Shown here: positions 30,964-55,412 of the stretch, piece by piece
Layout of the letters: each line of letters begins with the position of its first letter
Numbering within the stretch: position 1 is the stretch's first letter
DNA from: Thermoproteota archaeon
Lineage (GTDB): Archaea > Korarchaeota > Korarchaeia > Korarchaeales > Korarchaeaceae
Reading direction: 5' to 3'
Assembly: GCA_027492205.1 (NCBI GenBank)
Contig: JAOZFN010000009.1
Location: 97,316-161,315, forward strand
DNA length: 64,000 bases
Program-made: the position numbers and the translations under genes
The notes under the pieces: model-generated
Told to the model about the DNA's origin: nothing
Seen by the model: the letters and a program-made list of their open reading frames with translations, nothing else
Database searches by the model: none

Positions 30964-31722
30964 TCACGGGCGGAACAGCCCCCTGGGTACGGGAGTAAAG
31001 TGCTCCTCGAGCCCCAGATCATCGATGGGCTCCCCGAGAGCGTAGGCGATCGGCTGGGTTGCGTGGAGCACCGGGAGGATCCCTCCCCCGTAAAAGTCCA
31101 GCATGAAGTGGCAGAGGTTGCATATGGTTACAACGCACTCCGCCCCTGCGTCCCTGGCCGATTCCAGAACGGATCTGGCCATTTGCTTGGCATACTCGGG
31201 CCGGCGGAGGAGAATCGGTCCGCCGCAGCACTTGACCCTCATCCTGAAGTCCACGGGCTCGGCTCCGACGGCCGACATGAGTTCCTCCAGGATTTGAGGA
31301 TCCTCGGGGTCATCTATAGCCTGCTCCCTCGGCCTCAGTGCCTGGCAGCCATAGTAGGGGGCGACCTTGACGGGCCAGCTCCTGACCACCCTTCTCGCGA
31401 TCTCCTCTGCCCCGACCCTCCTGCCGAGGAACTCGATCAGGTGCGTGACCTCTGCGCCGCCTCTCCTGAGGGTCCCATAGCACCCGGAGCACCCTGTGAC
31501 GAGGGTCGCGCCGCCCGCCACCTCTGCGACGATCTCCGCTACCCTCCGAGAGGCCTGCCTGTCCACCATCTCCAGCTCGACGGTCCCGCAGCAGGGCGCG
31601 TCGTCTATTAGGCGGTGGGGCACGCCCAGCCTCTCGAGCACTACCTCGGCGGTCCTCAGGTAGGGCCTCTCCGTGGTCAGCGCGGAGCATCCCGGATAGT
31701 AGGCCACCTCATCCCCTGACAA
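30964..31722 (-). CDS. hdrB: Heterodisulfide reductase subunit B-like (two CCG domains)
   Basis: YYPGC, PCCG, GCSGC, PYYGC..LRP, KCCGG, CNLCH. Confidence 0.9.
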   Translation of the reverse strand: MSGDEVAYYPGCSALTTERPYLRTAEVVLERLGVPHRLIDDAPCCGTVELEMVDRQASRRVAEIVAEVAGGATLVTGCSGCYGTLRRGGAEVTHLIEFLGRRVGAEEIARRVVRSWPVKVAPYYGCQALRPREQAIDDPEDPQILEELMSAVGAEPVDFRMRVKCCGGPILLRRPEYAKQMARSVLESARDAGAECVVTICNLCHFMLDFYGGGILPVLHATQPIAYALGEPIDDLGLEEHFTPVPRGLFRP

Positions 31723-32191
31723 CCCTTGCCACCTCCCGCCTGTACTCCTCCCTCACCGACCCGGACTCGGCGAGCATACCTGCCAGCTTCAGGCCGCGTA
31801 GGCCGGCCAGTGCGAGCACTCGAACTCCCAGAGCTGACAGCGCCACTCTCGCAGGGTTAACAAAAGCTCTCTTGCTCAGTTCCGAGATAAAAGCCCGCTC
31901 CACATTGTCCGGGCCTCTCTCCTTGGTTTCTACGTTGGACAGCGCGATGGCAACCTCCGGAAAGTTCAGCCCCACGGGACAGCGAACTGAGCAGAGGTGG
32001 CAGTGCATGCACAGCTTGTAATCCCCGCGAAACACCTCGTCCCTCAGGTCCAAGAGAATCGCCCTGATCAGCCTGTGGGGGTAGAAACCGTCAAGCCCGG
32101 CGCTGGGGCACGAGGACGTGCACTCCGCGCACTGGAAGCACTTCGTCACGTCCTGGCCGGAGATCTCGAGCACGCGCTTCGCTAGGCTCAC
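31709..32191 (-). CDS. hdrC: Heterodisulfide reductase subunit C-like
   Basis: CFQCAECTSSCP and CMHCHLCSVRCP; between mvhD and hdrB. Confidence 0.88.
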   Translation of the reverse strand: MSLAKRVLEISGQDVTKCFQCAECTSSCPSAGLDGFYPHRLIRAILLDLRDEVFRGDYKLCMHCHLCSVRCPVGLNFPEVAIALSNVETKERGPDNVERAFISELSKRAFVNPARVALSALGVRVLALAGLRGLKLAGMLAESGSVREEYRREVARVVRG

Positions 32192-33099
32192 GATCTCACC
32201 CTCCCGAGGGATATCGCCTTGGCGGAGGCCTTGGCCTTGCAGTCGGGGCAGATGGGCGGTGAGTCGGCCCTCTCAAGTTCGCGACCGGTGGCGAACGGCC
32301 TCCCGCAGATCGAGCACCTCGTCAGCTCAAGCCTGGCCACCTCGCTCCAATCGCTCAGGAGCTGTGGAACGCTCACCCCGCCGAGCGAGAGAGCCTCGAC
32401 CTCGTTCTCCCGGCAGGCGTCTACGCAGTCCCCGCAGCCCGTGCACTTGAGGGCGGACAGGAGGAACACCCTGAAGTCGCCGCGGTCCTCATAGAGGAGA
32501 GCACCCTCGGGGCAGGCCTCGGCGCACGCCCCGCAGCCAATGCACCTATCCAGGTCGAACACGGGCACCTCGAACCCGGGTATCGCCGGCAGCCGGACGT
32601 CCCTGACCTCCACGGCGATGGACTGGAGGGCGCGGATTAGCGCCTCTCTCTTGGGGCCTACGGGCACGCTCTCCCTCCGGTGGAGGGGGGGTAGCGCCTC
32701 CGCCCTGGCGGCCATCTCCCTGGCGGCCTCAACGAACCTGTGAGGCTCGGAGGCGGCCATGAAGAACATCTCCACCCTCTCCGGCTCCACCCCGAGGGCA
32801 TCCAGCAGCGACTTCAGGAAGCTCACCCTGCTCTCGGCCTTCAGGTTACCGTCAACGTAGTGGCACTCCCCCTTCCTGCACCCGGCCACGAAGGCCGCGT
32901 CCGCACCGTTGGCCAGCGCGTAGAGGAGCCAGCTCGGGTCGACCGCGCCCGAGCAGGGGACCCTCACCACGAGCACGTTGGGCGGGTGAGTGCGGTGCGT
33001 GCTCCCCGCGAGGTCGGCGGCCGCGTAGGCGCACTCGTTGCAGCAGAAGCCGACGACGAGCTTCTTCGGTCCTCCAGGCGACTCTGATCCCGAGGCCAT
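32188..33099 (-). CDS. mvhD: MvhD/FlpD [2Fe-2S] protein fused to 2x[4Fe-4S] ferredoxin and a C-terminal CxxC..CxxC domain
   Basis: GFCCNECAYAAADLAG, RVPCSG, GADA...GC..GECHY..GN; then CIGCGACAEACP, CTGCGDCVDAC, CSICG..CPDC. Confidence 0.88.
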   Translation of the reverse strand: MASGSESPGGPKKLVVGFCCNECAYAAADLAGSTHRTHPPNVLVVRVPCSGAVDPSWLLYALANGADAAFVAGCRKGECHYVDGNLKAESRVSFLKSLLDALGVEPERVEMFFMAASEPHRFVEAAREMAARAEALPPLHRRESVPVGPKREALIRALQSIAVEVRDVRLPAIPGFEVPVFDLDRCIGCGACAEACPEGALLYEDRGDFRVFLLSALKCTGCGDCVDACRENEVEALSLGGVSVPQLLSDWSEVARLELTRCSICGRPFATGRELERADSPPICPDCKAKASAKAISLGRVRS

Positions 33100-33102
33100 C
33101 CG

Positions 33103-35082
33103 CTACACCTCCCCGCCTGGCGAGGCCGGCGCGGCCTCCAAGAGGCCGGCCACCTGCCTCATCACCTGCTCGACCCCGTAGACCCTCCTGGTTATCGCGC
33201 CGGTCGGGCAGACGGGCTGGCAGATTCCGCAGCCGGCGCAAGCGGCCGGGACAACCTCCGCCCTGCCTTCCCTCTCAACGATGGCCCCGAACGGACACTC
33301 GTCGGCGCAGGCCATGCAGCCGACGCACAGCTCCGGGTCCACGTAGGCCCTCTCACCGGTGACCTCCACCCTCCCCCTCACCAGTACTGTAGCCGCAGCG
33401 CTGGCGGCCGCCTTCGCCTGAGCGACCGAATCTGGGATATCCTTGGGGCCTTGGGCTCCACCGCAGATGAAAATTCCCGGCCTAGAGGTCTCCACAGGCT
33501 TCAGCTTGGGGTGAAGCTCCTGGAGGAACCCGTGTAGATCCGCCCCCACGTTGAGCACCTCCCTAACCTTCAGGGTGCCCTCCGACGGGGACAATCCCGC
33601 GGCCAGCACCACGAGGTCCGCCCTGAGCTCCAGCTTCCTGCCGAGGGTCTTGTCGAACACCTCCACCACGAGTTCATCGCCGTCCCTCCAGACCTCCCCG
33701 GGCTTACCCTGGACGAAGACTACCCCCTCTCGTCTGACCCGCTCGTACATCTCCTCGAATCCTTTCTTCGCAGTCCTCATGTCGATGTAGCAGATGTAGA
33801 CCTTGGAGTCCGGATACTCGGACCTCAAGATCTCGGCCTGCTTCAGCGAGACCATGCAGCACACTCCCGAGCAGTAGGGGTTGTGGTTCACGTCCCTGCT
33901 TCCGGCGCACTGTATGAACACTACCCTCTTGGGCACCTTGCCGTCCGAGGGTCTCCTCAGGTGCCCCCCGGTGGGCCCCGTCACGTTGATCAGCCTCTCG
34001 AATCCGAGCTGGGTTATCACGTCCGGTATCCTCCCGAAGCCGTAGTTCTTGAGGTTGGATGCGTCGTACTCCCTGACGCCCGTTGCTACCACGATGGCGC
34101 CCACCCTGAGTTCGAACTCCCGCGGCTCCTCGCGGAGGTCTATGGCCTTCGTGGGGCAGGCCTCGGCGCACGCCCCGCAGGACCCCTCCCTGATGAAGAG
34201 ACACGCGTTCGGGTCTATCACGTAGGCCCTCGGCGTGGCCTGAGGATACGGGATGTAGGCGGCCTTCCTCTTGCCGAGGAAGGCGTCCCACTCGTTCGGG
34301 ACCTCGACAGGACACTTGGAGGCGCATACCCCGCACGCCACGCACTTCTCTGGATCCACGTACCTGGGGCTCTTTCTCACCCTCACCCGGAAGTCTCCGA
34401 TCGATCCGGATACCTCAACGACCTCCGAGGTGGTGTGGATGTCGATCAGTGGGTGGGCCTCGGCCTCGGCCATCATGGGGGTCAGGATGCACAGGGAGCA
34501 GTCGCCGGTCGGGAACACCCTGTCTAAGAGGGCCATGAGCCCACCCACCGTGGGCGAGCGCTCCACCAGGTGAACCCTGATTCCCTTCTCCGCCAGGTCC
34601 AGGGCCGCGGCGAGGCCAGCGACCCCGCCTCCGATGACCAGGGCCTCCCGAACGACCTCCGCCTCCCCGACCTCAATGGGCTCCGCGGCCAGGACCTTCT
34701 CCACTCCCCCCAAGACGTACCTGATGGCCTTCCGGGTCGCCTCCTCTGGGTCCTCGGTTGACCAGGAGACGAGCTCTCTTATGTTCACCTGCTCCATGTA
34801 GCCGGGGTTGAGGCCCGCCTCGGCCACGACCCTCCTGAAGAGGGGCTCGTGGAGCTTGGGGCTGCACGCCGCCACGACCACCCTGTCCACCTTACCCGCC
34901 TCCACATCCCTCTTGATGAGTTCCTGCCCCGCCCGGCTGCACATGAAGAAGTAGTCCCTGGAGACGGCTACTCTCGGGTGCCTTCCAGCCTCCTTGGCCA
35001 CCCTCCTCACGTCCACCTTGCCCGCGATGTTCTTGCCGCAGTGACAGACGTAGACTCCGACCCTAGGCTCCGACGACTCCAT
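33103..35082 (-). CDS. hdrA: Heterodisulfide reductase subunit A (flavin-based electron bifurcation)
   Basis: VGVYVCHCG.NIAG, MCS, AACSP, GGGVAG, FPT.DC..C, inserted and C-terminal ferredoxin domains, QCAGSR, YCS.VCC, GPKDIP; ATG after GGTGAT. Confidence 0.95.
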   Translation of the reverse strand: MESSEPRVGVYVCHCGKNIAGKVDVRRVAKEAGRHPRVAVSRDYFFMCSRAGQELIKRDVEAGKVDRVVVAACSPKLHEPLFRRVVAEAGLNPGYMEQVNIRELVSWSTEDPEEATRKAIRYVLGGVEKVLAAEPIEVGEAEVVREALVIGGGVAGLAAALDLAEKGIRVHLVERSPTVGGLMALLDRVFPTGDCSLCILTPMMAEAEAHPLIDIHTTSEVVEVSGSIGDFRVRVRKSPRYVDPEKCVACGVCASKCPVEVPNEWDAFLGKRKAAYIPYPQATPRAYVIDPNACLFIREGSCGACAEACPTKAIDLREEPREFELRVGAIVVATGVREYDASNLKNYGFGRIPDVITQLGFERLINVTGPTGGHLRRPSDGKVPKRVVFIQCAGSRDVNHNPYCSGVCCMVSLKQAEILRSEYPDSKVYICYIDMRTAKKGFEEMYERVRREGVVFVQGKPGEVWRDGDELVVEVFDKTLGRKLELRADLVVLAAGLSPSEGTLKVREVLNVGADLHGFLQELHPKLKPVETSRPGIFICGGAQGPKDIPDSVAQAKAAASAAATVLVRGRVEVTGERAYVDPELCVGCMACADECPFGAIVEREGRAEVVPAACAGCGICQPVCPTGAITRRVYGVEQVMRQVAGLLEAAPASPGGEV

Positions 35083-35086
35083 TTGA

Positions 35087-35890
35087 TCACCCGAAGATCT
35101 CAGAGAACGCACTACTCAACGCTAAGATGGCAGGAGAGCTGTTGGGGATCGCCTTCACCCCTCTCCCCTCGATACTAGCCCTCAGCACCTCCGGGTCGCT
35201 CGGAACGAAGAACACCCTCGCGTCGGCGGAGAACCTCACCTCTATCTCTCCTTTGAGTGCCTCTCCTCCTTCTGGCACCTTGTTGACGATCAGCGAGAAC
35301 TCGCGGATCCCCAGCTGTCTCCCCATCTTGATGAGGCGCTTCGATATGTCTAGGGAGGCCACGGTGGGCTCTGAGACGCAGATCATGTGGTCGAAGTTCT
35401 CCGCGAGGCCCCTGCCGAAGACCTCGGCTCCCGCCTCCGAATCAACCACCACGGCGGATCTCTCGTCTGCTGACGACACGAGGTGCTTCAGTAGTCTCTT
35501 GGCCAGCGCGATGGCCGGGCAAAGGCACCCCTGCTTTGCTGCGTCTATGCTGCCCACGACCAGCAGGCTCAGCCCGTCCTCGATCCTCACCCCGTACCTC
35601 TCGGAGAGGTCGTCCACCCTCGGGTTGACGCGAAACAGCACCCCCCAGGCCTGGCCGGGTCTCGCCCCGGTTCTCTGCTCTACCAGCTCCTCGTTCCTCA
35701 CGAGCGGGACGATGCCGCGGCTGACATCGGCGGGCAGCCCCAGAGCCATGCCGAGGTTGGGGACCGAGTCCGCGTCAACGGCTAGGACCCTCATGCCGCG
35801 GTCACGCAAAAAGTGGGAGAGGAGGGCGGCCACAGTCGTCTTGCCCACCCCTCCCTTCCCGGCCACGAGAACCCTGAGGGGCAATCCCAT
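35087..35890 (-). CDS. cooC: CO dehydrogenase nickel-insertion ATPase
   Basis: GKGGVGKTT, VDAD..PNL..ALG, GCLCP, DSEAG.E.FGRG; ATG 35890 overlaps cooS stop. Confidence 0.92.
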   Translation of the reverse strand: MGLPLRVLVAGKGGVGKTTVAALLSHFLRDRGMRVLAVDADSVPNLGMALGLPADVSRGIVPLVRNEELVEQRTGARPGQAWGVLFRVNPRVDDLSERYGVRIEDGLSLLVVGSIDAAKQGCLCPAIALAKRLLKHLVSSADERSAVVVDSEAGAEVFGRGLAENFDHMICVSEPTVASLDISKRLIKMGRQLGIREFSLIVNKVPEGGEALKGEIEVRFSADARVFFVPSDPEVLRASIEGRGVKAIPNSSPAILALSSAFSEIFG

Positions 35891-37845
35891 CACTCCGGCC
35901 AGCCAAGGGCCCTTCTCTTCTCCGCTATGTGGGCCATGATCACCTCGGCAGCCTTCGCCGGGTCGGGCTCCACGAAGAACTTCCCGCCGACGAGGTCCTC
36001 CGCCTTGTCGGTGAGTATCTCGACAACCTTCTTGCTGCCAAGGACCGGAGGGACGGTTCCCAAGTGGACCAGTAGGCCGGATGCGACGAAGTAGGACCCT
36101 ATAGAGACTGCCTTCTCGCTCATCCACTCCGGGGCGGAGCCGGCCGCGGGCAGGTCGGATATGTCGACCCCCAGGTGGTCGGCCAGCGCCGCGAGTGCGA
36201 TCAGCATCCTGGAGCAGTCGACGCAGCTCCCCATGTGGAGCGCGGGCGGGATCCCGAGCGCTTTGCATATCTCCCTGAGCCCCGGCCCAGCGAGATCAGC
36301 TGCCTCAGGAAGGAGGAGGCCGTGCTTGCCCATGGCTATGCCCCAGCAGCCCGTGCCCACTATCAGAACGTCTCTCTTGATCAGCTCCTTGGTGAGGGTG
36401 ACGTGGCTGTGATCGTGCTTCACCTTGGGGTTGACGCACCCCACGATGCCCACGATCCCCTTGATCTTGCCTGCCTTAAGGGCGTCGGCCAAGGGCTCCA
36501 GAGAGCCGCCTAACGCCTCAAGGATCGCCTCAACGCTGAATCCAGCCACCAGCTCGGACTTCTCCTTGGGTATCAACACCCTCTCCGGGTTCCTGTTCTT
36601 GAAGTTCTCCACGGCGATCCGGACTATCTTCTTCGCCGTCTCGGTCGCGTTGGCCTTGTCGAACTCTACGTGAATGGCGCCCGGTATGTGGGCCTTCGGC
36701 TCCGTTGTGATAACCTTTGTGTGGTAACAGGACGCCACGTCGACGATCGCGGGCATGATGCACTGGTAGTCGACTATGACCGCCTCTAGGGCTCCGGTAG
36801 CTATGGCCAGCTCCTGCTGTAGGAGGTTCCCTGCTACGGGTACCCCCAGTCTGACGAGTATCTCGTTCCCTGTGCAGCACATCCCGACGACGTTGATTCC
36901 CCCCTCAGCACCGAGCTCCCTGGCCATCTGAACCAGCTCCGGATCTCCGGCTACCTCTGCGATCTTCATGGAGAGAACCGGGTTGTGACCGTGCACCAGT
37001 ATGTTGACGGCATCCTCTCTGAGAACCCCCAGGTTGGCCACTGACCTGATCGGCTTCGGGGTGCCGAACATCACGTCGCTCAGTAGGGTCGCCATCATGG
37101 AGCCGCTCCAGCCGTCGGCCAAGGCGCACCTCAGCCCCTGAGCGATGAGGGTGAGCGGGTCCGCGTCGACGCCCATGTGAGTCCTGTGCATTATCTCGGT
37201 GACTTCCCTGTCAATCGCCCTCGGCATTATCCCGACCTTCCTCCAGATGTCCTTCCTCTTCTTCGGAGCGTAGGCCTCGACCAGTTTGAGGGGCTCCTCT
37301 CCGGGCTTGCCGAACTCCCACTCCATTACCTCGGCCACTTCCTTCGCAATGTCGTTCAGCTCCCTGCCCTCGACCTCCAGCCCAAGGGCCTGAGCGACTC
37401 CCCTCAGCTTGTCGGGGTCCTTGATGCCGTAGTCCTTAGCCCAGCCCTCGGGTATGCCCTTGAAGACCTCGACTATGTCTCTGGCGTGGTCGCTGTGGGC
37501 GGCCGCCCCGGCGGCGAGCATCCTCATCAGGTTCCTGGCTACTATCGTGTCCGCGGTGGCCCCGCAGACGCCCTTCTGTGGTCCGTATCCGAACGGATCG
37601 ATCCTGCAGGGACCCATATTGCAGTTCCTGCAGCAGACCCCCAGGAGCCCGAATCCGCACTGCGGCTGCTGGGCCAGGTACCTGTGCCAAGCCGTCTCGG
37701 CCCCGTCCATCTCGGCCTTCTCCAGGAGCTGGGGCACGGTGGGATCGATGGATACGGACTCGTAGAACTCCCTCCTGGCGGCCCTCATGAGTCTCTCGTA
37801 GACCCTCTCCGAACCGGGCTTCTCTTTCTCCACCGAGGCCGTCAT
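35890..37845 (-). CDS. cooS: Anaerobic Ni,Fe carbon monoxide dehydrogenase catalytic subunit
   Basis: QPQCGFG..GVCCRNCNMGPCRI, CGA, AHSDH, HGHNP, MCCTG, DYQC, VGC.NP, TGC, GSCVD, SEKA - full B/C/D cluster ligand set. Confidence 0.96.
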   Translation of the reverse strand: MTASVEKEKPGSERVYERLMRAARREFYESVSIDPTVPQLLEKAEMDGAETAWHRYLAQQPQCGFGLLGVCCRNCNMGPCRIDPFGYGPQKGVCGATADTIVARNLMRMLAAGAAAHSDHARDIVEVFKGIPEGWAKDYGIKDPDKLRGVAQALGLEVEGRELNDIAKEVAEVMEWEFGKPGEEPLKLVEAYAPKKRKDIWRKVGIMPRAIDREVTEIMHRTHMGVDADPLTLIAQGLRCALADGWSGSMMATLLSDVMFGTPKPIRSVANLGVLREDAVNILVHGHNPVLSMKIAEVAGDPELVQMARELGAEGGINVVGMCCTGNEILVRLGVPVAGNLLQQELAIATGALEAVIVDYQCIMPAIVDVASCYHTKVITTEPKAHIPGAIHVEFDKANATETAKKIVRIAVENFKNRNPERVLIPKEKSELVAGFSVEAILEALGGSLEPLADALKAGKIKGIVGIVGCVNPKVKHDHSHVTLTKELIKRDVLIVGTGCWGIAMGKHGLLLPEAADLAGPGLREICKALGIPPALHMGSCVDCSRMLIALAALADHLGVDISDLPAAGSAPEWMSEKAVSIGSYFVASGLLVHLGTVPPVLGSKKVVEILTDKAEDLVGGKFFVEPDPAKAAEVIMAHIAEKRRALGWPE

Positions 37846-38465
37846 TCAGACCACCTCACGGTCCCATACATCTCCCTGAGAGATGCCAGGGGGGATCTGG
37901 GGGCCCTCTCCGTTGGCCTGGCGTACACCACCGCGGCCTCGGCCAGACCCAGCACCATCTCAGCGGCCCTCCTGACCTTCTCCCTGTCCAGGATCTCTTC
38001 GGCCCTGCCATACCTCAGGGCGCCCGTCGGGCAGGCCTCGACGCACGCTGGCGGGAGTCCAACCCGGAACCTGTCAACGCAGTGGTCGCACTTCACAACC
38101 TTCCTCCTGAAGTCGTAGGTCGGGTGGCCAAAGGGGCAGGCGAGGAGGCAGGTCCTGCACCCTATGCACCTATCGAGGTCCGATACCACGAACCCCTCCT
38201 CGGTCCTGTGCATGGCCCCCGTGGGGCAGGCCTCGACGCAGGGGGCCGGGTCACAGTGCATGCACCTCATCGGCACGTAGACGCCGGCTGCCGGGACCAC
38301 CTTCGTCCTCGGCCTGGGCGTGGGATCCTCGAAGACGGCCTGAAACAGCTCCTTTGAGGAGGAGTGCTCGACCGCGCAGGCTATCTCGCAGCTCCTGCAC
38401 CCCACGCATCTCTCGGGGTCGACGTAGATGAGGTATTCCAGGTAGCTCGGAGGGACGGTTGCCAT
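37842..38465 (-). CDS. cooF: CO dehydrogenase Fe-S electron-transfer subunit
   Basis: Four Cys clusters (CVGCRSCEIAC.VEH, CMHC..APC, CIGCRTC, KCDHC); immediately upstream of cooS. Confidence 0.9.
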   Translation of the reverse strand: MATVPPSYLEYLIYVDPERCVGCRSCEIACAVEHSSSKELFQAVFEDPTPRPRTKVVPAAGVYVPMRCMHCDPAPCVEACPTGAMHRTEEGFVVSDLDRCIGCRTCLLACPFGHPTYDFRRKVVKCDHCVDRFRVGLPPACVEACPTGALRYGRAEEILDREKVRRAAEMVLGLAEAAVVYARPTERAPRSPLASLREMYGTVRWSE

Positions 38466-38476
38466 TCATCCCCCCG

Positions 38477-38530
38477 GGAGAATTCTGAACCCGCTCAAGA
38501 AAAATTCTCCGATTTAGGTAAAAAATTTAA
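38477..38530 (-). promoter_or_regulatory. Putative coo-hdr promoter with operator-like inverted repeat
   Basis: AT-rich TTAAATTTTTTACC on minus strand (38530-38517) followed by GGAGAATT-N18-AATTCTCC (38477-38510). Confidence 0.5.
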
Positions 38531-39687
38531 CTAAGCCCCTTCGTTTAACGTGAGGTTAAAACGGACGATCCCCAGGCCGGCCTTGTAGCCCCGGTAGGAC
38601 CGCACCAGCTCGAGGGCCTCCGGCGTGAGGACCACGCCTCCCCGTCCGGCGCCGCCCTTCCACGACTCGAAGAGCTTGAACCCCAGGGCGGACTCCATTC
38701 TCTTGAGCCTCCTGTACACCGCCGGGGGGGACAGCCCGAGGCTCCTCGCGACGGCGCTGAGGCTCCCCGTCGACTCCAGCATAGAGAGCAGGTCCAGATC
38801 GTCTTCATCCAGGATTTGACCGTCCTTCGTGACCAGCCTGAGGGAAGGGATGAACGAGTAGGCCGCGGAGCGCTCTATCAGCTCGCACCCCGAGCCGAGT
38901 ATGCTCCGGAGTTCCTCCGGCCCGTAGGCCGGGTTGAGCTGGCCCAGCATGGGGCACTTGCCAACCAGGCCGGACGGGTCCATGTAGATAATCCTGCATT
39001 CCCTGCGACATCTAGGGCCCGAGAGGAGGTATACCGGAAAGTCCCGGTGGAACGTCACTCTCATCTCGTAGATCCCCATGAACTCTCCGAAGGGGTCTGA
39101 GACGTCGTACCCCCTGCCTTGCATAGCCTTTACCACGTCCGCTGGACACCTGGTGACCGGGCAGAAGACCGGGGGAGAGACCCACACCTGGAGACCCCAC
39201 GACCTGCCGATGTTCACCATCTCTGTGATCTCTTCGTCGTTCAACCCGGGGACGTAGATGGACATCAACCTCATGGATTTCTCAGCCACGAGGAGCCTCC
39301 TGACGAACCTCTTGGCGCGCTTAAGCTCGGAGGTCGAGTAGCAGAACAGGAATATCTCGCCTGCTTTCATGAGACGTTCTGGAGATCTCTCACGGGAGCC
39401 AGCCGCCGCGGGGACGAACACGTGAGATTCCAGGCCCCTGTCGGTCGCCGCCGCGATCAGCTCCTCCACCCTAGGGTGAGCCAGCGGTTAGGACACGTGA
39501 AGTACACGTCGGGCCTCAGGCCAGAGCCTATCAGCGAGTCCAAGAAGACCTCAACCCTGTGGGGGTCAAGAAAGCCACGGGGAGGGACCCTCTCCTCGGC
39601 GCGCGGGCAGTAGGAGCACGCGGAGTCGCAGCCGTCGATGGACCTCACGACTGCTATCGCCTCGGCGCGGCCCGCAGGTGGACTCAA
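38531..39687 (-). CDS. Radical-SAM-like Fe-S protein with C-terminal ModE-type winged HTH, split by a one-base frameshift near 39486
   Basis: ORF 39457-39687 has CDSACSYC; adding one C at AAC|CGC gives TCPNPLAHPRVEELI continuing into ORF 38531-39469, which ends in TGSLSAVARSLGLS...GGAGRGGVVLT. Confidence 0.72.
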
Positions 39688-40235
39688 CTGCGGGTTCCTC
39701 CCTCGAGGACCTCCGCTTCAAATGCGCACGCGTCCGCCCCAGCGGCCTGGCACTCCCTCTCAATCATCGGGCCTATTCGAATGCCGGTCGTGTCCTCCAC
39801 CAGGGCGGCGAGGAGGCCGGCCGTGAAGTGACACACGGGCGAATCCGACCTCCTCCCCCTGGCCTCGAACGAGTCCCTTACCCTGACAACCACCTTCTCC
39901 TCTCCTAACGTGATCGACAGGATGTCGCCGAACCCCAGGGACCTGTAAACCCTCCTGGCCACGTCCAGCATCTCGCTGAGAGACAGCTTCTCCTTGGTTG
40001 AGACTATGCCCTTGGAGTCGTGGACCTTCATCATCCTGTAGGCGGAGTAGTACAGGACCGGCCTCAGACCCTTCTCGCCCACGAAGACGGTCAGCCCGGC
40101 CATGAAGTCCGCCCACCATCGGGTAGACATCAGGAACATGTCCTTGAGCACGACCCTGCCGAAGTGGGGGATGTCCACCTCGGCCCGGAGCACCCCCCTC
40201 CTGTGGGGGTCCTCCTCGATTGCCCTAAGGCTCAT
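39684..40235 (-). CDS. V4R (4-vinyl reductase) domain protein
   Basis: LGFG, VRDSFE, PVCHFTAGLLA, ERECQAAG.DACAFE; ATG 40235 after GGTG; stop overlaps next TTG start. Confidence 0.85.
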   Translation of the reverse strand: MSLRAIEEDPHRRGVLRAEVDIPHFGRVVLKDMFLMSTRWWADFMAGLTVFVGEKGLRPVLYYSAYRMMKVHDSKGIVSTKEKLSLSEMLDVARRVYRSLGFGDILSITLGEEKVVVRVRDSFEARGRRSDSPVCHFTAGLLAALVEDTTGIRIGPMIERECQAAGADACAFEAEVLEGGTRS

Positions 40236-40404
40236 CTCCGCACCTAGAGAACATTTCCGGGACCAAAATAACGATTTATCCGGCGGTAAAAACGGCGCGA
40301 GGTCCAGCAACTGACCGTGCTGGGCAGGTCGTGGACTTGACTGTCCGGGTGTATGGATGCGGAGATAGGGACAGGGTTATGAGGCGGGCTGCGCCCGCTG
40401 ACCT

Positions 40405-41292
40405 GTGAAGGTAAGTCCGCTGTGCGCGATATGCCTCTCGTCGAGTGTTGTCAGGCTGAGTTCCCTCACACACCTGGAGAGGGACGAGGCCTTCAGGCTT
40501 GCCCTGCAGCTCCTCAGAGAGTTCAGGGGGATGTGGTCTGACGACGCGATCCCCGCCGATCTCGGTACGGCGCTGGCCCTGAGGGCGTCGGAGCTCTCTG
40601 GGATAGAGGACATCAAGGGCCCGCTGAAGAGGGCGGCCATGGAGAGCGTAAGGGGCGGCATCAGGACGGTGGCCTTGAGGCACCTGTCCGGGATTCCGGA
40701 AGGCTACGAGCGGTTTCGGGAGGTCGCCCTCCTCTCGGCCGCAGCGAACGCCGTGGAGGTGGGGGTGCAGGACCACCCTATCGACCCATCTGAGGCGTTC
40801 AAGGCGGTCTTGAGGGCAGCGTCGAGGGGATTCGCGGTGGATCGCACGAGAGGGGCCTATTCCATCCTCAAGGGGGCCAGATCCGTGGTCCTGATGAGCG
40901 ACAACCTGGGGGAGTTCTTGGTAGACGCGCTGCTCATCGACCTTCTCGTCGGCATGGGAAAGGAGGTGACGGTGTTGGCCAAACCGGGCCCAATACTCGA
41001 CGACGTCACCGTGGAGGAGGCTCGACAAGTCGTGCCGAGCGGCGTGCGCGTGATTCCGGCAACCATCCGTCCCCGACTGGGGTTCCGCAGGGGTGAGGCC
41101 ACTCGCGAGGCTCTGAAGGCGATAGAGGAGTCCGATATGGTCATAGCGAAGGGCATGGGCCACTACGAGACCTTGACCGAGCCTGCCGAGGGGTTGGGGA
41201 GACCAACGCTCCTGCTCCTCACGGCCAAGTGTCGACCCGTGGCCAAGTCCTTGGGCGTGAGGCTCGGGTCTCCAGTGGCGCTGATGCTGTGA
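40405..41292 (+). CDS. DUF89/ARMT1-like damage-control phosphatase
   Basis: N-terminal CxxC, AAN, SDNLGE...D, PILDDVT, AKGMGHYETL, AKC.PVA. Confidence 0.87.
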   Translation: MKVSPLCAICLSSSVVRLSSLTHLERDEAFRLALQLLREFRGMWSDDAIPADLGTALALRASELSGIEDIKGPLKRAAMESVRGGIRTVALRHLSGIPEGYERFREVALLSAAANAVEVGVQDHPIDPSEAFKAVLRAASRGFAVDRTRGAYSILKGARSVVLMSDNLGEFLVDALLIDLLVGMGKEVTVLAKPGPILDDVTVEEARQVVPSGVRVIPATIRPRLGFRRGEATREALKAIEESDMVIAKGMGHYETLTEPAEGLGRPTLLLLTAKCRPVAKSLGVRLGSPVALML

Positions 41293-43262: not shown

Positions 43263-44083
43263 ATGGACGAGCTTGAGCTGTCCTACGTGGCCTCCACCTC
43301 GCTTCTCGCCGCCCTGACCATCCTACCACCTGCCGTTTCTCGCCTCCCCGAGGGGGCGGCGCTGGCGGCGGCCTTCGCAGCCTTGGCGGCGGCGGTCTTA
43401 GTCCCGGCCAGGGCGCTGAAGAGGGCTGGGATCCCGTTCAAGGGACTTAAAGCGTCGGATTTGTGGTACCTGGCGAGCGCAGACCTCTTCAGATCGCTCG
43501 AGGTCGTTGGGTTCGGTGCGGGGTGGGTCCCTCCATCACTCCGCACTTTGGGCGCGGCGCGGGCATCGGCGCTGTCTTCCTCCTCCTGTCCATCACCTGG
43601 GCGGTCGGCCTCGCCGCCGCCGAGACGCGGCGCGTTGAGGGTCTGAGGCCCCGGATCGTCCCGTGGGCGGTCACCGTCGGATATCCGCTTCTCTGGCTCG
43701 CGGGGACGCTGGAACTCGGTGGGACCTCGTGGATGGAGGCGACCCTCTTCCTAACAGTCGCGATCGGCCTGGGGGCCGCGCTGCTCACGGCGTGTCTCGG
43801 GGCGGCGCTGTCCCCTCGGAGGTTCGGGGGCGAGTTCGCCTGGCGGGGGCCGCTCCTCCGCATCGCGCCGGCGGTCGCCGGATCCGCCCTCATGACCGCT
43901 GGGCTGGAAGGGCCCATCCTCGCTGCCGTCTTCATCTACTGCACGACGGTCCTGATGGGATCGATAAAGATCTGCCAGCGAGTCGGTCCGCTTGCGACCT
44001 GGGCTTACGTGGTCATCTTTCCGCTGAACCCGCTGGTCCTGCGGGGACTCATCCTCAAGCTCTCCATAGTACTCGCCCCGTAG
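43263..44083 (+). CDS. Hypothetical membrane protein, apparently frameshifted near 43555
   Basis: Hydrophobic N-terminal ORF 43263-43646 switches to hydrophobic ORF 43463-44083 around ...LGA|GAGIGAVFLLL. Confidence 0.5.
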
Positions 44084-51426: not shown

Positions 51427-54054
51427 ATGAAGCCCTTCCGCTCGGTCGCGATACCCCACAGGGACATCCTCGAGGGCAGGCTCACGATGGACGTGTTCGC
51501 GGCCGACCTCTGGGAGGTCTACCGTGGGAGGGCCCCGGAGGACTACAGAGATCCTGAGATCTTCTTCAGGAAGACCTACCTGACCGCCGGACTGAAGAAT
51601 CTGCTCAGCGTGGCTTCGAAGAGGCTGAGGGGAGAGGGTGGAGACCCCGTCATACAGATTCAGACCCCGTTCGGCGGGGGGAAGACCCACTCCCTGATAG
51701 CCCTGTATCACGCCTTCACTAGCCCCGACTCCGTCAGACCCTACTTCAAGGGAGCAATGAAAGCCAACGTGGTGGTGATAGTCGGGACGGCCATCAGCCC
51801 CAAAGAGGAGGGCGGGAGGATAGAGGGAACCCTATGGGAGGAGATTGAGAGACAGCTCGAGGGAAGGGTAGAGGAGATGACTCATCCCATCTCGCCGGGA
51901 AAAGAAGCACTCAGGGAGCTGCTAGAGAAGCACCAGCCCCTCCTGATATTGATGGATGAGGTGCTGGAGTACGTCGCCAAGGCGGCCGGCATAAAGAGGG
52001 GATACAGCGAGCTGAGGATAGGGGACACGAACCTGGCGGCCCAAACCATAGCCTTCATGCAGGAACTCACCGAGACGGTGAAGTCGCTCGACAGGACCCT
52101 CTTGGTCGTCACTCTGCCCTCAAGCGTGGTCGAGTATCCCGACGAGGAGAGGGCCCAGGAGCTCCTTCTCAAGCTCCAGAAGGTGGCCGGGAGGATAGAG
52201 AGAGTCTACTCTCCCGTTAGCGGGGACGAGATATACGATGTCATCAGGAGAAGGCTGTTCTCAGAAGTAGACGATGAGGGTGCCAGGGAGGTCGTGAACG
52301 AGTTCGTGGATTACTATGAGAAGGAGGGCCTGCTCGTTAGCAAGGCGGAGTACAGAGAGAAGATGCTTAGGACCTATCCCTTTCACCCAGAGACCATCGA
52401 CGTTCTGCACAAGAGGTGGGGGAGTCTCCCTACCTTCCAGAGGACTAGAGGGGTGCTCAGGATACTCTCGCTCGTGGTGCACAGGCTGAAGGACTCTTCA
52501 GCCCCGCTGATAAGGCCCTGCGACTTCGATCTAGCTTTCGACGAACTCGCCGAGGAACTCTTGAAGCATATAGGAAGGGAGTATGAGAGCGTACTGCGCG
52601 CCGACGTGACTGCTTGGGATTCGAACTCTAGGAAGGTCGATGAGACCTTGGGCAGCGCCTACAAGGGGCTCGGCCTAGCCACCAAAGTGGCAACCGCGAT
52701 CTTCCTCTACTCTTTCTCGGGAGGAGAGAGAGGAGCAACCCTTGGAGAGCTAAAGCTGGCCTGTGCCGACGTGAACATACCCACTAGCGTCATAACTGAG
52801 GTTGTCGAGAAACTCTCTGGCTCCCTCTACTATCTCTGGAAGGAGGAGGGAAGGTACGTCTTCAAGAGTCAGCCGAACCTCAACAAGCTGCTCGTCTCTA
52901 AGATGGCCGAGATCGAAGAGCCCGAGCTTATGGAGGAGGCTAGATCTCTCGTCACTAAGTATGCGGGTTCAGCCCTCGCCACGTACGTGTGGCCCGGCGC
53001 CCCTAGAGATGTGCCAGATGGTGAGGAGCTTAAGCTCGTCATCATGCAGAGGTATGACTTGGATCTGCTGAAGAGAATCCTCGAGGAGTATGGGGATAAC
53101 CCTAGGGTGAACAAGAACACTCTCTTCTTTCTAGCCCCACTGGAGTCGGAGAGATATGGGTTCGAGAGTTGGCTCAGGAGGAAGATAGCATGGAGGAGGA
53201 TCTCTGAGGACAGATCCCTCAACCTTACGGACGCTCAGAGGGAGGAAATCGATAGCAACATCAAAGCGATGAGTGGCGAGGAGAGGGACGAGCTGAGGAA
53301 GCTCTACAGGGTCGTCATAGTGCCCGCCAAGGAACTGAAGGAGGTGAGCCTCGGAATCCCAACGTTCGGTGACAGGAGACCGCTGTCCCTAGAAGTCTTT
53401 GAGAAGTTGAAGGAGGAGGGAGAGATAGTTGAGAGGCTGTCTCCAGTCCTCATAACAGAGAGGTACATGCGGGACAGGGACTACCTGGAACTCGTCCAGC
53501 TGTACAGAGCTCTGCTCTCCACTCCCGGAGAGCCACGAATCAGGAGGGACAAATTCATCGCATCCATCAGGGAAGCGGTGAGAAGGGGGAACTTTGGGTT
53601 CGGGTACTTAGAAGACTCCCGAGTTCGCTGCACGGTGATTGAGAGCACCCCAGAAATCTCTCTACGGGAAGGAGAGGTCATCGTTCGTAAAGAGCTGTGC
53701 GAAGAGAAGAAGAGAACGGGTGAAGGGAAAGCTGAGGGAGAACTTGGTCCAGCTGGACCAGTGGGTGGACCAATCGGAGCGAGGCCGCCCGTGGGAGGTA
53801 CGAGGGAGGGCCCAACGCCCGAGGGACCGTTCATCACGTCTGTAAGCCTCAGCCTCAGAATTCCTCGGGGAAGGTTCTCCGACTTCTACAGAGGGGTCCT
53901 AGGAGTGTTAGAGGATAGCTTCGAAGAGACCGAGGTCGTCATAAGCCTGAAGGCGAAGGGAGGTAGGATTAGCAGGTCTAGGTATGAGGATACCGTCAGG
54001 GAGACGCTGACGCAGATTGGCGCCGAGATACTGGAAGAGGAGACTGAAGAATAG
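51427..54054 (+). CDS. DUF499 AAA+ ATPase
   Basis: PHRDI..G...FAADL, FF..TYLT, Walker A TPFGGGKTH, Walker B LILMDE, RRRLF, YPFHP, FQRTRGVLR. Confidence 0.9.
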   Translation: MKPFRSVAIPHRDILEGRLTMDVFAADLWEVYRGRAPEDYRDPEIFFRKTYLTAGLKNLLSVASKRLRGEGGDPVIQIQTPFGGGKTHSLIALYHAFTSPDSVRPYFKGAMKANVVVIVGTAISPKEEGGRIEGTLWEEIERQLEGRVEEMTHPISPGKEALRELLEKHQPLLILMDEVLEYVAKAAGIKRGYSELRIGDTNLAAQTIAFMQELTETVKSLDRTLLVVTLPSSVVEYPDEERAQELLLKLQKVAGRIERVYSPVSGDEIYDVIRRRLFSEVDDEGAREVVNEFVDYYEKEGLLVSKAEYREKMLRTYPFHPETIDVLHKRWGSLPTFQRTRGVLRILSLVVHRLKDSSAPLIRPCDFDLAFDELAEELLKHIGREYESVLRADVTAWDSNSRKVDETLGSAYKGLGLATKVATAIFLYSFSGGERGATLGELKLACADVNIPTSVITEVVEKLSGSLYYLWKEEGRYVFKSQPNLNKLLVSKMAEIEEPELMEEARSLVTKYAGSALATYVWPGAPRDVPDGEELKLVIMQRYDLDLLKRILEEYGDNPRVNKNTLFFLAPLESERYGFESWLRRKIAWRRISEDRSLNLTDAQREEIDSNIKAMSGEERDELRKLYRVVIVPAKELKEVSLGIPTFGDRRPLSLEVFEKLKEEGEIVERLSPVLITERYMRDRDYLELVQLYRALLSTPGEPRIRRDKFIASIREAVRRGNFGFGYLEDSRVRCTVIESTPEISLREGEVIVRKELCEEKKRTGEGKAEGELGPAGPVGGPIGARPPVGGTREGPTPEGPFITSVSLSLRIPRGRFSDFYRGVLGVLEDSFEETEVVISLKAKGGRISRSRYEDTVRETLTQIGAEILEEETEE

Positions 54055-54139
54055 TGTGGACACCCGCCCGACCAGTTCTTTTGCGCTCGACAGGTTTATG
54101 AGAATTCCCTCGCGAGCCATGGGCCGGGGTGTGACCCCT

Positions 54140-55183
54140 ATGGTCGTGAACCTGCGAGGTAGGGACTTCATCTCGACGCAGGAGTGGACGAGAGAGGAGC
54201 TCGAGGCCGTCCTCAAGCTGGCCATGGAGCTCAAGGACAAGAAGAGGAAGGAGATCCCCCACAGGCTCCTGGAGGGGAAGACCCTCTTCATGCTGTTCTA
54301 CAACGCCAGCCTGCGAACGAGGAACAGCTTCGAGACCGGCATATTCGAGCTGGGCGGCCAGGGCATCTACCTCCAGCCCGGCGCCGTTTACACCCCAGCC
54401 CTGAAGGGTGAGGAGATCGCCTACACCACCGAGAGGATCTCCGACGTGGCGAGGGTGCTGAGCAGGTACGGCCACGCCATCGCGATAAGGATCTACGGCA
54501 AGCCCGTCCAGTGGGTGTACGGGAAGGGCGACCGCATAGTGAGGGAGTTCGCCCACTGGGCCGACATCCCCGTAATCAACATGGAGGACGACATCTACCA
54601 CCCGTGCCAGGCCATGGCCGACGTGATGACCGCCATAGAGCACAAGGGCCGGCTGGAGGGCAAGAAGGTCGTCGTAAGCTGGGCCTACTCGGCCGGCGTG
54701 AAGCCCGTCGCCGTGCCCCAGAGCGCCATACTGGCGTTCACCCGGTTCGGGGCCGACGTCGTCCTGGCCCACCCCAAGGGGCTCGAGCTCGACCCCAAGA
54801 TAGTGGACATGGCTAGGCAGAACGCCGACGAGTTCGGCGGCAGCTTCGAGATCAGCTACGACATGAACGAGGCCTTCGAGGGGGCCGACATCGTCTACCC
54901 CAAGAGCTGGGGGTCCCTCAAGTTCATGCCGCCCAACGTCCCCGAGGTGGACAAGGAGGGCATGATCAACCTGATGAACCAGTACAAGGACTGGATATGC
55001 GATCAGGAGAAGATAGACAGGGCCAAGAGCGACGTCATCTACATGCACTGCCTGCCGGCCGACAGGGGCATGGAGGTCACCGACGACGTGATAGACGGGC
55101 CTCACAGCGTGGTCTTCGACGAGGCGGAGAACAGGCTCCACGTTCAGAAGGCCATCATGGCCTACGTGATGGGGGGCGTCTGA
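54140..55183 (+). CDS. Knotted carbamoyltransferase (YgeW / N-acetylornithine carbamoyltransferase-like)
   Basis: SLRT, HPCQ, SWAYS..KP.AVPQ, TRFG.DV.LAHP, YPKSW, HCLPAD, EAENR; ATG 54140 after GGGGTG. Confidence 0.88.
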   Translation: MVVNLRGRDFISTQEWTREELEAVLKLAMELKDKKRKEIPHRLLEGKTLFMLFYNASLRTRNSFETGIFELGGQGIYLQPGAVYTPALKGEEIAYTTERISDVARVLSRYGHAIAIRIYGKPVQWVYGKGDRIVREFAHWADIPVINMEDDIYHPCQAMADVMTAIEHKGRLEGKKVVVSWAYSAGVKPVAVPQSAILAFTRFGADVVLAHPKGLELDPKIVDMARQNADEFGGSFEISYDMNEAFEGADIVYPKSWGSLKFMPPNVPEVDKEGMINLMNQYKDWICDQEKIDRAKSDVIYMHCLPADRGMEVTDDVIDGPHSVVFDEAENRLHVQKAIMAYVMGGV

Positions 55184-55412
55184 GCTAGCCCCATCCCAAC
55201 TTTTTCCCAGGAACTGGAACTCGCGAGAGTCCCCTCCTTTGGCAAGCGACTCTGCGGGGGGACGCCCCAATGACAGGTACTCCCCTTCAACGTGAGGGGG
55301 AGAGATCTTCAAGAATGGCTTGGGAGGGGGTCAAGCAAGTCCCCTAGTCAACTTGCCTCGGTCATCCTGTTAAACTAATTAATTTGAGAATCCGAACGCC
55401 CCCCGGGGGCCC

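Follow-up and report, generated by a model that had tools for sequence, protein, structure and literature searches.

A two-gene module at the head of the Ni-CO-dehydrogenase (CODH) operon in a 64,000-nucleotide stretch of korarchaeal DNA (contig JAOZFN010000009.1 of assembly GCA_027492205.1, positions 97,316 to 161,315; this whole stretch is called the window below) is, with a probability that we put at about 0.8, the korarchaeal orthologue of CorQ/CorR, the archaeal regulator of that operon. Its first gene, corQ, encodes a stand-alone V4R protein, and the product of the second, corR, is, judged by sequence profiles and a structural model, a MoaA-like radical-SAM barrel fused to a ModE-type DNA-binding domain. 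We regard the pair as a new member, from Korarchaeota, of the CorQR system already known, and as probably intact in the organism; as assembled, corR carries a one-base frameshift, which is discussed below. CorQR has been defined genetically in one Thermococcus. The fold of CorR provides a testable lead on how archaea sense CO without haem, and the module tracks Ni-CODH in Korarchaeota and Thermococci as well as in additional uncultured lineages, fronting in the window a CODH-Hdr/Mvh operon instead of a CODH-hydrogenase operon.

Passages of PMC6557876 describe CorQR as a V4R protein and a protein with a LysR-type DNA-binding domain, which flank the CODH-ECH cluster of Thermococcus onnurineus; the radical-SAM fold of CorR is the addition made here. 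Passages of PMC4791640 report activation of the CODH cluster by CorQR and place a CODH promoter upstream of TON_1017, and part of PMC13077300 counts CorQR among the CO-responsive regulators that adjoin Ni-CODH loci. The T. onnurineus NA1 locus (L056), named by exact protein look-up, contains in order a V4R gene (WP_048055067.1, whose cluster has an entry 'TON_1015-1'), ACJ16504.1 and ACJ16505.1, the last being a cooF-type ferredoxin. ACJ16504.1 (P0228), annotated as 'hypothetical transcriptional regulator', aligns over residues 2-366 with residues 10-384 of P0002, an intact close relative of the window's CorR, at 27% identity (E 5e-32), and has CDATCANC, CPNPFLHP, C-x13-CP and a C-terminal HTH_1 domain as P0002 does. 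Because ACJ16504.1 is a full-length homologue, the window pair is best read as a CorQR orthologue with no swapped partner. A preceding annotation made from the letters of the window (the sequence-only reading) had taken the DNA-binding partner for a new architecture unlike CorR, and this claim falls, as the T. onnurineus protein has the same architecture and the same motifs. The label of CorR as LysR-type, which that reading repeated, survives in part: HTH_1 is present, and yet CorR is not a canonical LysR protein, since the helix-turn-helix (HTH) is all that it shares and lies at the C terminus.

The two systems are alike in having a V4R gene, an overlapping regulator gene and cooF-cooS-cooC, and CxxxCxxC, CPNP, C-x13-CP and the C-terminal HTH_1 are common to both CorR proteins. 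They differ downstream, where T. onnurineus has an Mch hydrogenase/antiporter module and the window has HdrA-MvhD-HdrCB. The window CorQ is about 23% identical to Thermococcus CorQ, with an invariant C/E/C/C set common to both; the korarchaeal candidate operator is unlike the motif conserved in Thermococci, and the window corR, unlike that of T. onnurineus, is frameshifted in the assembly. Among the other relatives, one cluster bears a Thermococcus barophilus name, 'LysR family transcriptional regulator', and the protein of genome G013 is ACB07508.1 of Korarchaeum cryptofilum OPF8, an organism of the window's phylum, with the V4R neighbour ACB07507.1. The source names of ACB07508.1, 'periplasmic molybdate-binding protein', 'ModE-like' and 'LysR family', are misleading for CorR. 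The original CorQR paper, on T. onnurineus NA1 (Kim et al. 2015, Appl Environ Microbiol 81:1708), reportedly also mentions in its abstract homologues in Ca. Korarchaeum cryptofilum. The literature that was searched, in which CorQR is treated by secondary papers, yielded no link between CorR and the radical-SAM fold; no paper naming CorQR together with Korarchaeum was found in the literature search, and a preprint on CODH genomic context mentions neither radical SAM nor V4R nor LysR.

The order V4R-CorR-cooF-cooS recurs in Korarchaeota, in Thermococci and on metagenome contigs, which upholds the earlier proposal of a two-gene V4R and DNA-binding module tied to the CODH operon. Genome contigs were searched with a single protein (P0156) and metagenome contigs with a four-sequence alignment (A6), and the linkage counts cover family members other than those that lack the N-terminal Cys triad (a Pyrodictium-type group, P0026 and others). 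Of the 12 korarchaeal loci, 11 have a corR homologue immediately upstream of cooF-cooS, as have all eight Thermococci-type loci; the sequence-only reading had named homologues unlinked to coo genes as grounds for refutation, and these counts clearly show the opposite. A V4R gene lies directly upstream of the corR homologue in ten of the 11 coo-linked korarchaeal loci, the contig of the 11th ending first, and hdrA comes next in every locus long enough to include it. In the 12th korarchaeal locus (G037, 26-31% identity) a cooF-like gene is all that lies near the homologue. Thermococci-type genomes carry a corR gene in 19 cases out of 97, and in one of their loci (L032) a V4R gene (PF02830, 4.6e-13) overlaps the start of the corR homologue. 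The Thermococci V4R genes came to light through Pfam and through a query from Thermococcus; tblastn with the window V4R protein gave no match in Thermococci loci at E <=1e-4. At 16 metagenome loci a V4R gene is directly upstream in 12 and a short V4R piece in two more, and cooF is directly downstream in 11, two loci ending at the match and three holding partial matches only.

The same association is seen at the level of whole genomes. Of 43 genomes in the window's phylum, 15 contain a match to P0002 at E <=1e-10, one of them through the HTH only, and CooS is present in 20 of the 43. Each of the 14 genomes that give a CorR-type match also encodes CooS, and none of the 23 genomes without CooS has such a match; six CooS-bearing genomes have no CorR match to P0002, several of these having a divergent CooS or cut contigs. 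A separate observation concerns one of the Thermococci-type loci (L038, JAADCS010000069.1), a 4.3-kb contig binned as Thermotogota whose corR-cooF-cooS set is 59% identical to that of Thermococcus, and which is either a mis-binned contig or a transfer into a bacterium.

CorR was modelled as intact P0002, which is 88% identical to the second window piece of corR (piece 2), on the basis of 34 relatives. The first window piece (piece 1) matches Pfam Radical_SAM weakly (E 0.042, 14.5 bits, below the cut-off of 29.5), and intact P0002 passes that cut-off (PF04055, 32.4 bits) with a match that spans residues 16-84 only; a match at E <=0.01 is found in 8 of 34 CorR relatives. The model is confident (predicted local distance difference test, pLDDT, 87.7; predicted template modelling score, pTM, 0.72), and its residues 6-281 are closest to MoaA (Z 19.1, root mean square deviation (r.m.s.d.) 3.6, 265 residues aligned), with further radical-SAM matches to BlsE (Z 16.4), PqqE (16.2), SuiB (16.1), SkfB (15.0) and anSME (13.7). 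Foldseek also matched the model to MoaA (E 1.4e-9) and gave 80 matches at E <=0.001, nearly all radical-SAM enzymes among the matches listed. Profile alignment of CorR with the genome's own MoaA by hhalign gave a probability of 95.8 (E 7.4e-9, 252 columns). That MoaA is a separate gene product (TIGR02668, 322.8 bits), and corR lies outside the 13 matches of that family search.

Piece 2 contains HTH_1 (E 2.6e-12, residues 230-291 of the piece) and matches TIGR00637, the repressor domain of ModE, at E 1.9e-12 and with 47.1 bits, which is short of the cut-off of 98.5; profile matches in the PDB are to 2ijl (E 8.2e-13) and 1b9m (E 4.8e-10), and residues 279-382 of the P0002 model match ModE 1b9m (Z 13.0, r.m.s.d. 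2.3, 98 residues aligned) as well as LysR-type DNA-binding domains. The N-terminal radical-SAM/TIM fold and the C-terminal ModE-type winged HTH, both proposed in the sequence-only reading, are thus borne out by the fold and profile matches. CorR resembles ModE (1b9m/2ijl) and the LysR-type DNA-binding domains in having a winged HTH with a GG..G wing; this domain is C-terminal in CorR and N-terminal in ModE, and Pfam detects neither a TOBE/Mop molybdate-binding domain nor a LysR_substrate domain in P0002 or in either window piece. With P0002 as query, an exhaustive phmmer search returned 337 proteins at E <=0.001 (32 at <=1e-10 and 7 at <=1e-30), about 35 of which are full-length matches (340-381 residues, 20-45% identity), the remainder matching the HTH only. 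Elsewhere in the genome the DNA-binding domain of CorR has a single sizeable match, on contig 4 (L003 727-1803, minus strand), which was considered as a second CorR-like gene and rejected; its product is an ordinary 358-residue protein that has a ModE-type HTH at the N terminus and lacks a radical-SAM part.

The alignment with MoaA also places the cysteines of CorR. It sets CDSACSYC of piece 1 on the cluster motif CNFSCFYC of the genome's MoaA, CPNP on its GGEP, and, within its auxiliary CxxCx13C, C231 on the second Cys and C245 on the third, so the CxxxCxxC motif, the degenerate GGEP-like segment and the twitch-like auxiliary Cys hairpin that had been picked out by eye each find a counterpart. 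Among 37 family members the N-terminal triad is kept at C20 in 28, at C24 in 26 and at C27 in 30. The first G of GGE is replaced by C65 in 30 and the second by P in 26, and the position of the E is occupied by N or D in 17 and by E in two. In the auxiliary motif C231 and C245 are each found in 35 members, C268 in 34 and C227 in 13, and the two members without C231 are also without C245 and C268. Further cysteines had been listed as well: the auxiliary C231/C245/C268 set is near-invariant family-wide, and CPVTRCP is kept only in the window's genus and its closest relatives. The middle Cys of the triad is absent or displaced in several members (CDLTHPRC, CSGCGAPC). C65 accompanies C27 in 29 of 30 members and is found in one of the seven that have no N-terminal triad region; this co-occurrence represents few independent events, because six of those seven look like one clade.

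CorR and MoaA (GTP 3',8-cyclase, 1tv7/2fb2) are alike in the N-terminal CxxxCxxC and in the C-terminal C-x13-C hairpin of the auxiliary cluster. They differ in that MoaA has GGE where CorR has CP(N/D), in that the auxiliary CxxC of MoaA is CxxxC or a single C in CorR, which has the conserved C268 in addition, and in that CorR, unlike MoaA, is fused to a DNA-binding domain. Since the fold is kept, the motif for S-adenosylmethionine (SAM) is gone and two sets of cysteines are conserved, these comparisons suggest that the N-terminal domain of CorR would be an Fe-S-holding sensor rather than an active enzyme. In a more specific version, to which we give low odds, CorR would be a retired radical-SAM enzyme serving as a gas or redox sensor, with C65 taking the chelating place of SAM at the unique iron of a [4Fe-4S] cluster. 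CO, or reduction by a CO-charged ferredoxin pool, would then displace or alter the C65 ligand, and this change would be relayed to the ModE-like domain. If true, this would be the first radical-SAM fold serving as the sensor of a transcription factor, and a way for archaea to sense CO that does without haem.

CorQ matches V4R well above the cut-off (PF02830, E 4.7e-13, 49.5 bits; cut-off 31), as one of eight V4R matches in the genome, of which five exceed it. The longest corQ open reading frame (ORF) begins at TTG 40310, and the relatives begin at the position of ATG 40235. The model of CorQ is of middling confidence (pLDDT 70.1) and is closest to the phenol sensor PoxR (5fru_A, Z 11.8, 148 residues aligned), followed by MJ1460 (2oso_A, Z 11.6) and DmpR with phenol (6iy8_A, Z 10.9), with distant matches to H-NOX (Z 6.4); the sequence profile of CorQ matches MJ1460 as well (E 1.6e-8). 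CorQ shares its fold with MJ1460 and with the V4R domains of PoxR, DmpR and MopR, and unlike PoxR, DmpR and MopR it is stand-alone, without an AAA+ or HTH output domain. All 13 CorQ sequences compared, among them that of Thermococcus, have C135, E159, C162 and C170 without exception, and this C...E-x2-C-x7-C pattern resembles the structural zinc site of MopR/PoxR-type sensors. Prediction of a complex between CorR (alignment A4) and CorQ (alignment A3) gave a score of 0.00 against a mark of 0.32, which is uninformative either way.

Building on the homology, fold, motifs, synteny and repeated palindrome shown here, we propose the following mechanism, in which the activator role is carried over from the Thermococcus literature and the Fe-S clusters, the kind of signal and the operator are inferred. 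CorR would be a sensor and regulator in one polypeptide with two parts. Its barrel would be the signal-receiving module, not an enzyme, and most likely holds one or two [4Fe-4S] clusters (C20/C24/C27 with C65, and C231/C245/C268), and its winged helix probably binds CGTTTTWAC-N5-GWTAAAWCG as a dimer, upstream of the cooF promoter and of corQ. CorQ would work with CorR as a ligand-binding protein of the PoxR/DmpR V4R type. CO, or the reduced state that follows from CO oxidation, would cause the pair to switch on cooF-cooS-cooC-hdrA-mvhD-hdrCB and probably its own genes. The known haem-based regulators CooA and RcoM are likewise transcription factors that lie beside coo genes and activate anaerobic CO oxidation, according to parts of PMC6557876 and PMC13077300. 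Unlike these, the window pair has no CRP/FNR, PAS or LytTR domain and no haem-binding motif that a Pfam scan detects; the sensor parts of CorQR would be a V4R protein and an Fe-S-type radical-SAM fold.

Several other accounts of the pair were weighed against this mechanism. It is possible, if doubtful, that CorQ is the CO sensor, through its Cys/Glu/Cys/Cys site or a hydrophobic pocket, and that the Fe-S domain of CorR is structural or a redox or oxygen safety switch. The V4R fold is a ligand-binding one, as the PoxR, DmpR-phenol and distant H-NOX matches illustrate, the four residues are invariant, some CorR relatives are without the first Cys triad, and passages of PMC6557876 ascribe CO sensing to the V4R domain. 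On the other side, 34-35 of 37 members retain the auxiliary cysteines of CorR, a sign that these serve a function. The four CorQ residues, moreover, need not bind a gas, because their pattern resembles a structural zinc site. Quite improbable, in our estimate, is that CorR is still a working radical-SAM enzyme, with SAM cleavage and modification of a small molecule or of CorQ as the chemistry that yields or reports the signal. The barrel fold is genuine, the window has CxxxCxYC with an aromatic residue before the last Cys, P0002 exceeds the Pfam cut-off and the MoaA-type auxiliary motif is retained; against this, GGE has given way to CP(N/D)P, the Pfam match is confined to the first part of the barrel, the middle Cys of the triad is lost or shifted in several members and the whole triad in seven, and the genome has a MoaA of its own. 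Scarcely credible is a regulator of molybdate or tungstate whose MoaA-like domain would tie it to molybdenum-cofactor metabolism. Such a role is suggested by the database names and by a DNA-binding domain closest to ModE next to a sensor domain closest to MoaA, and is contradicted by the missing TOBE/Mop domain, by linkage to cooF-cooS-cooC and not to mod or moa genes in every lineage examined, and by the report of CorQR as activator of the T. onnurineus CODH cluster in parts of PMC6557876 and PMC4791640.

Some points also weigh against the orthology and the mechanism that we favour. The assignment of corR to the gene upstream of cooF is drawn from secondary papers, position and domain content, and the CO response in Korarchaeota is carried over from Thermococcus; the physiological signal could differ there, because the module downstream in the window is of the Hdr/Mvh type and not an Mch hydrogenase. 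Any binding of Fe-S, SAM or CO by CorR is predicted from sequence and model. The N-terminal triad is absent in 7 of 37 family members, and therefore an N-terminal cluster cannot be essential family-wide. Candidate operator 1 (Table 1) lies inside the corR coding sequence, so its conservation could partly reflect coding constraint. The evidence for an intact corR frame, finally, comes from relatives, with no sequencing run containing the window's own strain.

An uninterrupted corR frame is not present in the window as assembled. Piece 1 is an ORF of 76 codons (39687..39457) that includes CDSACSYC, and the open frame of piece 2 extends from 39487 to 38531. Five proteins came from a word-based protein search with piece 2, one being the window's own piece and three being intact proteins of 385-389 residues. 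These intact relatives (P0002, P0003 and P0005) are 76-88% identical over piece 2, carry Radical_SAM and HTH_1 in precomputed Pfam annotation, and read YFTCPNPLAHPR across the break point, identical to the protein of about 385 residues that the sequence-only reading had obtained by joining the two ORFs. At the DNA level the window has CCTAA-CCG where two relatives have CCTAACCCG. The window's own strain was not found in public sequencing runs (best share of sampled words 0.10), and the contigs of relatives have the extra base in all three runs that cover the site. A related genome (G008) is 93.5% identical to the window over 14.5 kb of DNA, and all five single-base indels between the two are deletions on the window side at short homopolymer runs; one indel relative to the L021 locus falls at window position 39485, which is the frameshift site. 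The two corR pieces are otherwise 98% identical to the G008 protein, with no further damage. Programmed frameshifting was ruled out, all relatives being in one frame.

Taken from these alignments, the frameshift is most likely an assembly error, because other deletions at homopolymer runs occur nearby in the window, and the organism therefore probably has an intact corR. That corR is truly frameshifted here, as a recent pseudogene or as two expressed pieces (a 76-residue Cys peptide and a 312-residue protein from GTG 39469 without the first cluster), with the coo-hdr operon unregulated or regulated differently, is rather unlikely. The deletion is there in the sequence as given, a GTG start is available for the second piece, and some relatives function without the N-terminal triad. 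Set against these are the intact frame in all close relatives and in the three covering runs, the otherwise undamaged pieces, and the four other short-run deletions relative to G008, two of which also upset reading frames, a pattern of homopolymer sequencing error. One of these, at 43554, splits a single 273-residue ORF of G008 into overlapping window ORFs of 127 and 206 residues (43263-44083, plus strand) and is likely a second assembly error of the homopolymer type. Another, at 54123, alters the C terminus of a minus-strand gene (53996-55312), which encodes 438 residues in the window and 391 in L021, and a further single-base deletion, at 55299, lies just upstream of the start of the same gene.

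Two palindromes near the pair are candidate operators. A search for the palindrome at up to three mismatches gave two matches in the 64-kb window and none in 100 shuffles, and the same two sites and no others are found in the G010 and G008 loci. Operator 1 is conserved in L020, L021 and L022, and operator 2, upstream of corQ, in L020 and L021; in L025 a perfect palindrome, CGTTTTAAC-N5-GTTAAAACG, stands between corR and cooF at the place of operator 1. The arrangement would suit a ModE-type domain that works as a dimer both at the coo promoter and at the promoter of its own genes. An inverted repeat, GGAGAATT/AATTCTCC, is a weaker candidate and was set aside, as two close relatives, L021 and L022, have not retained its right arm.

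Other korarchaeal genera and Thermococci have different conserved upstream elements. Genus g4 (L023, L024) has a TTTCGTT-N4-AACGAAA inverted repeat before cooF, and in the Korarchaeum-type loci (L026-L028) a GGTATC-N11-GATACC repeat falls within the end of corR; from one korarchaeal genus to another the operator sequence seems to drift. All eight Thermococci-type loci (L032-L039) contain a CCGAACACG box about 10 nucleotides upstream of a TTATTAA-like element and about 60 nucleotides upstream of cooF, and most have the inverse CGTGTTC about 45 nucleotides further upstream. The CCGAACACG box is a candidate CorR site in Thermococci, unlike the korarchaeal palindrome.

The features of the locus are collected in Table 1. 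The stop codon TGA of corQ overlaps the TTG start of corR (TTGA), and the corR stop TAG at 38533-38531 is followed after 65 nucleotides by the cooF ATG at 38465; translational coupling of the V4R gene to the regulator, and the 65-nucleotide distance to cooF, were correctly recognized in the sequence-only reading.

Table 1. Positions in the window of the corQ-corR module, its candidate control elements and the genes of the target operon
Feature	Position	Strand	Basis or remark
corQ (stand-alone V4R sensor protein, 183 residues)	39684..40235	-	PF02830; start by alignment with 12 relatives
corR residues 1-67, first frame (TTG start; CDSACSYC = C20, C24, C27; then YFTC65-P-N67)	39488..39687	-	collinear with P0002/P0003
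corR frameshift site, CCC run one C short	39485..39487	-	DNA alignment with relatives
corR residues 68-385, second frame (remainder of radical-SAM fold to about 281, then winged HTH)	38534..39487	-	
corR ModE/LysR-type winged HTH, about residues 289-385	38534-38824	-	HTH_1, TIGR00637, PDB profiles, fold matches
corR auxiliary Cys motif C227-x3-C231-x13-C245-P ... C268	38885..39010	-	family conservation and MoaA alignment
Candidate operator 1, CGTTTTAACCTCACGTTAAACGA	38541..38563	-	within last corR codons, a few nucleotides upstream of TATA-like box
TATA-like box for cooF, TTAAATTTTTTA	38517..38528	-	read from sequence; putative promoter
Inverted repeat GGAGAATT/AATTCTCC	38477-38510		after TATA-like box, before cooF
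Candidate operator 2, CGTTTTTACCGCCGGATAAATCG	40272..40294	-	37-59 nucleotides upstream of corQ ATG
cooF	38465..37842	-	Pfam
cooS	37845..35890	-	Pfam
cooC	ends 35087	-	Pfam
hdrA-like flavoprotein gene	35112..33103	-	Pfam
FlpD/MvhD-ferredoxin fusion gene	33099..32188	-	Pfam
hdrC-like ferredoxin gene	32191..31709	-	Pfam
hdrB-like CCG protein gene	31722..30964	-	Pfam

The whole target operon, cooF-cooS-cooC-hdrA-mvhD-hdrCB, occupies 30964..38465 on the minus strand. Its CODH genes precede genes for HdrA-like, MvhD/FlpD-ferredoxin, HdrC-like and HdrB-like proteins (30964-35112, minus strand), with no membrane hydrogenase there, which suggests that in these Korarchaeota the module fed by CO oxidation is of the heterodisulfide-reductase type and possibly electron-bifurcating. 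The divergent neighbour of corQ (40405-41292, plus strand) encodes a protein with an ARMT1-like damage-control phosphatase domain (PF01937, E 3.4e-37).

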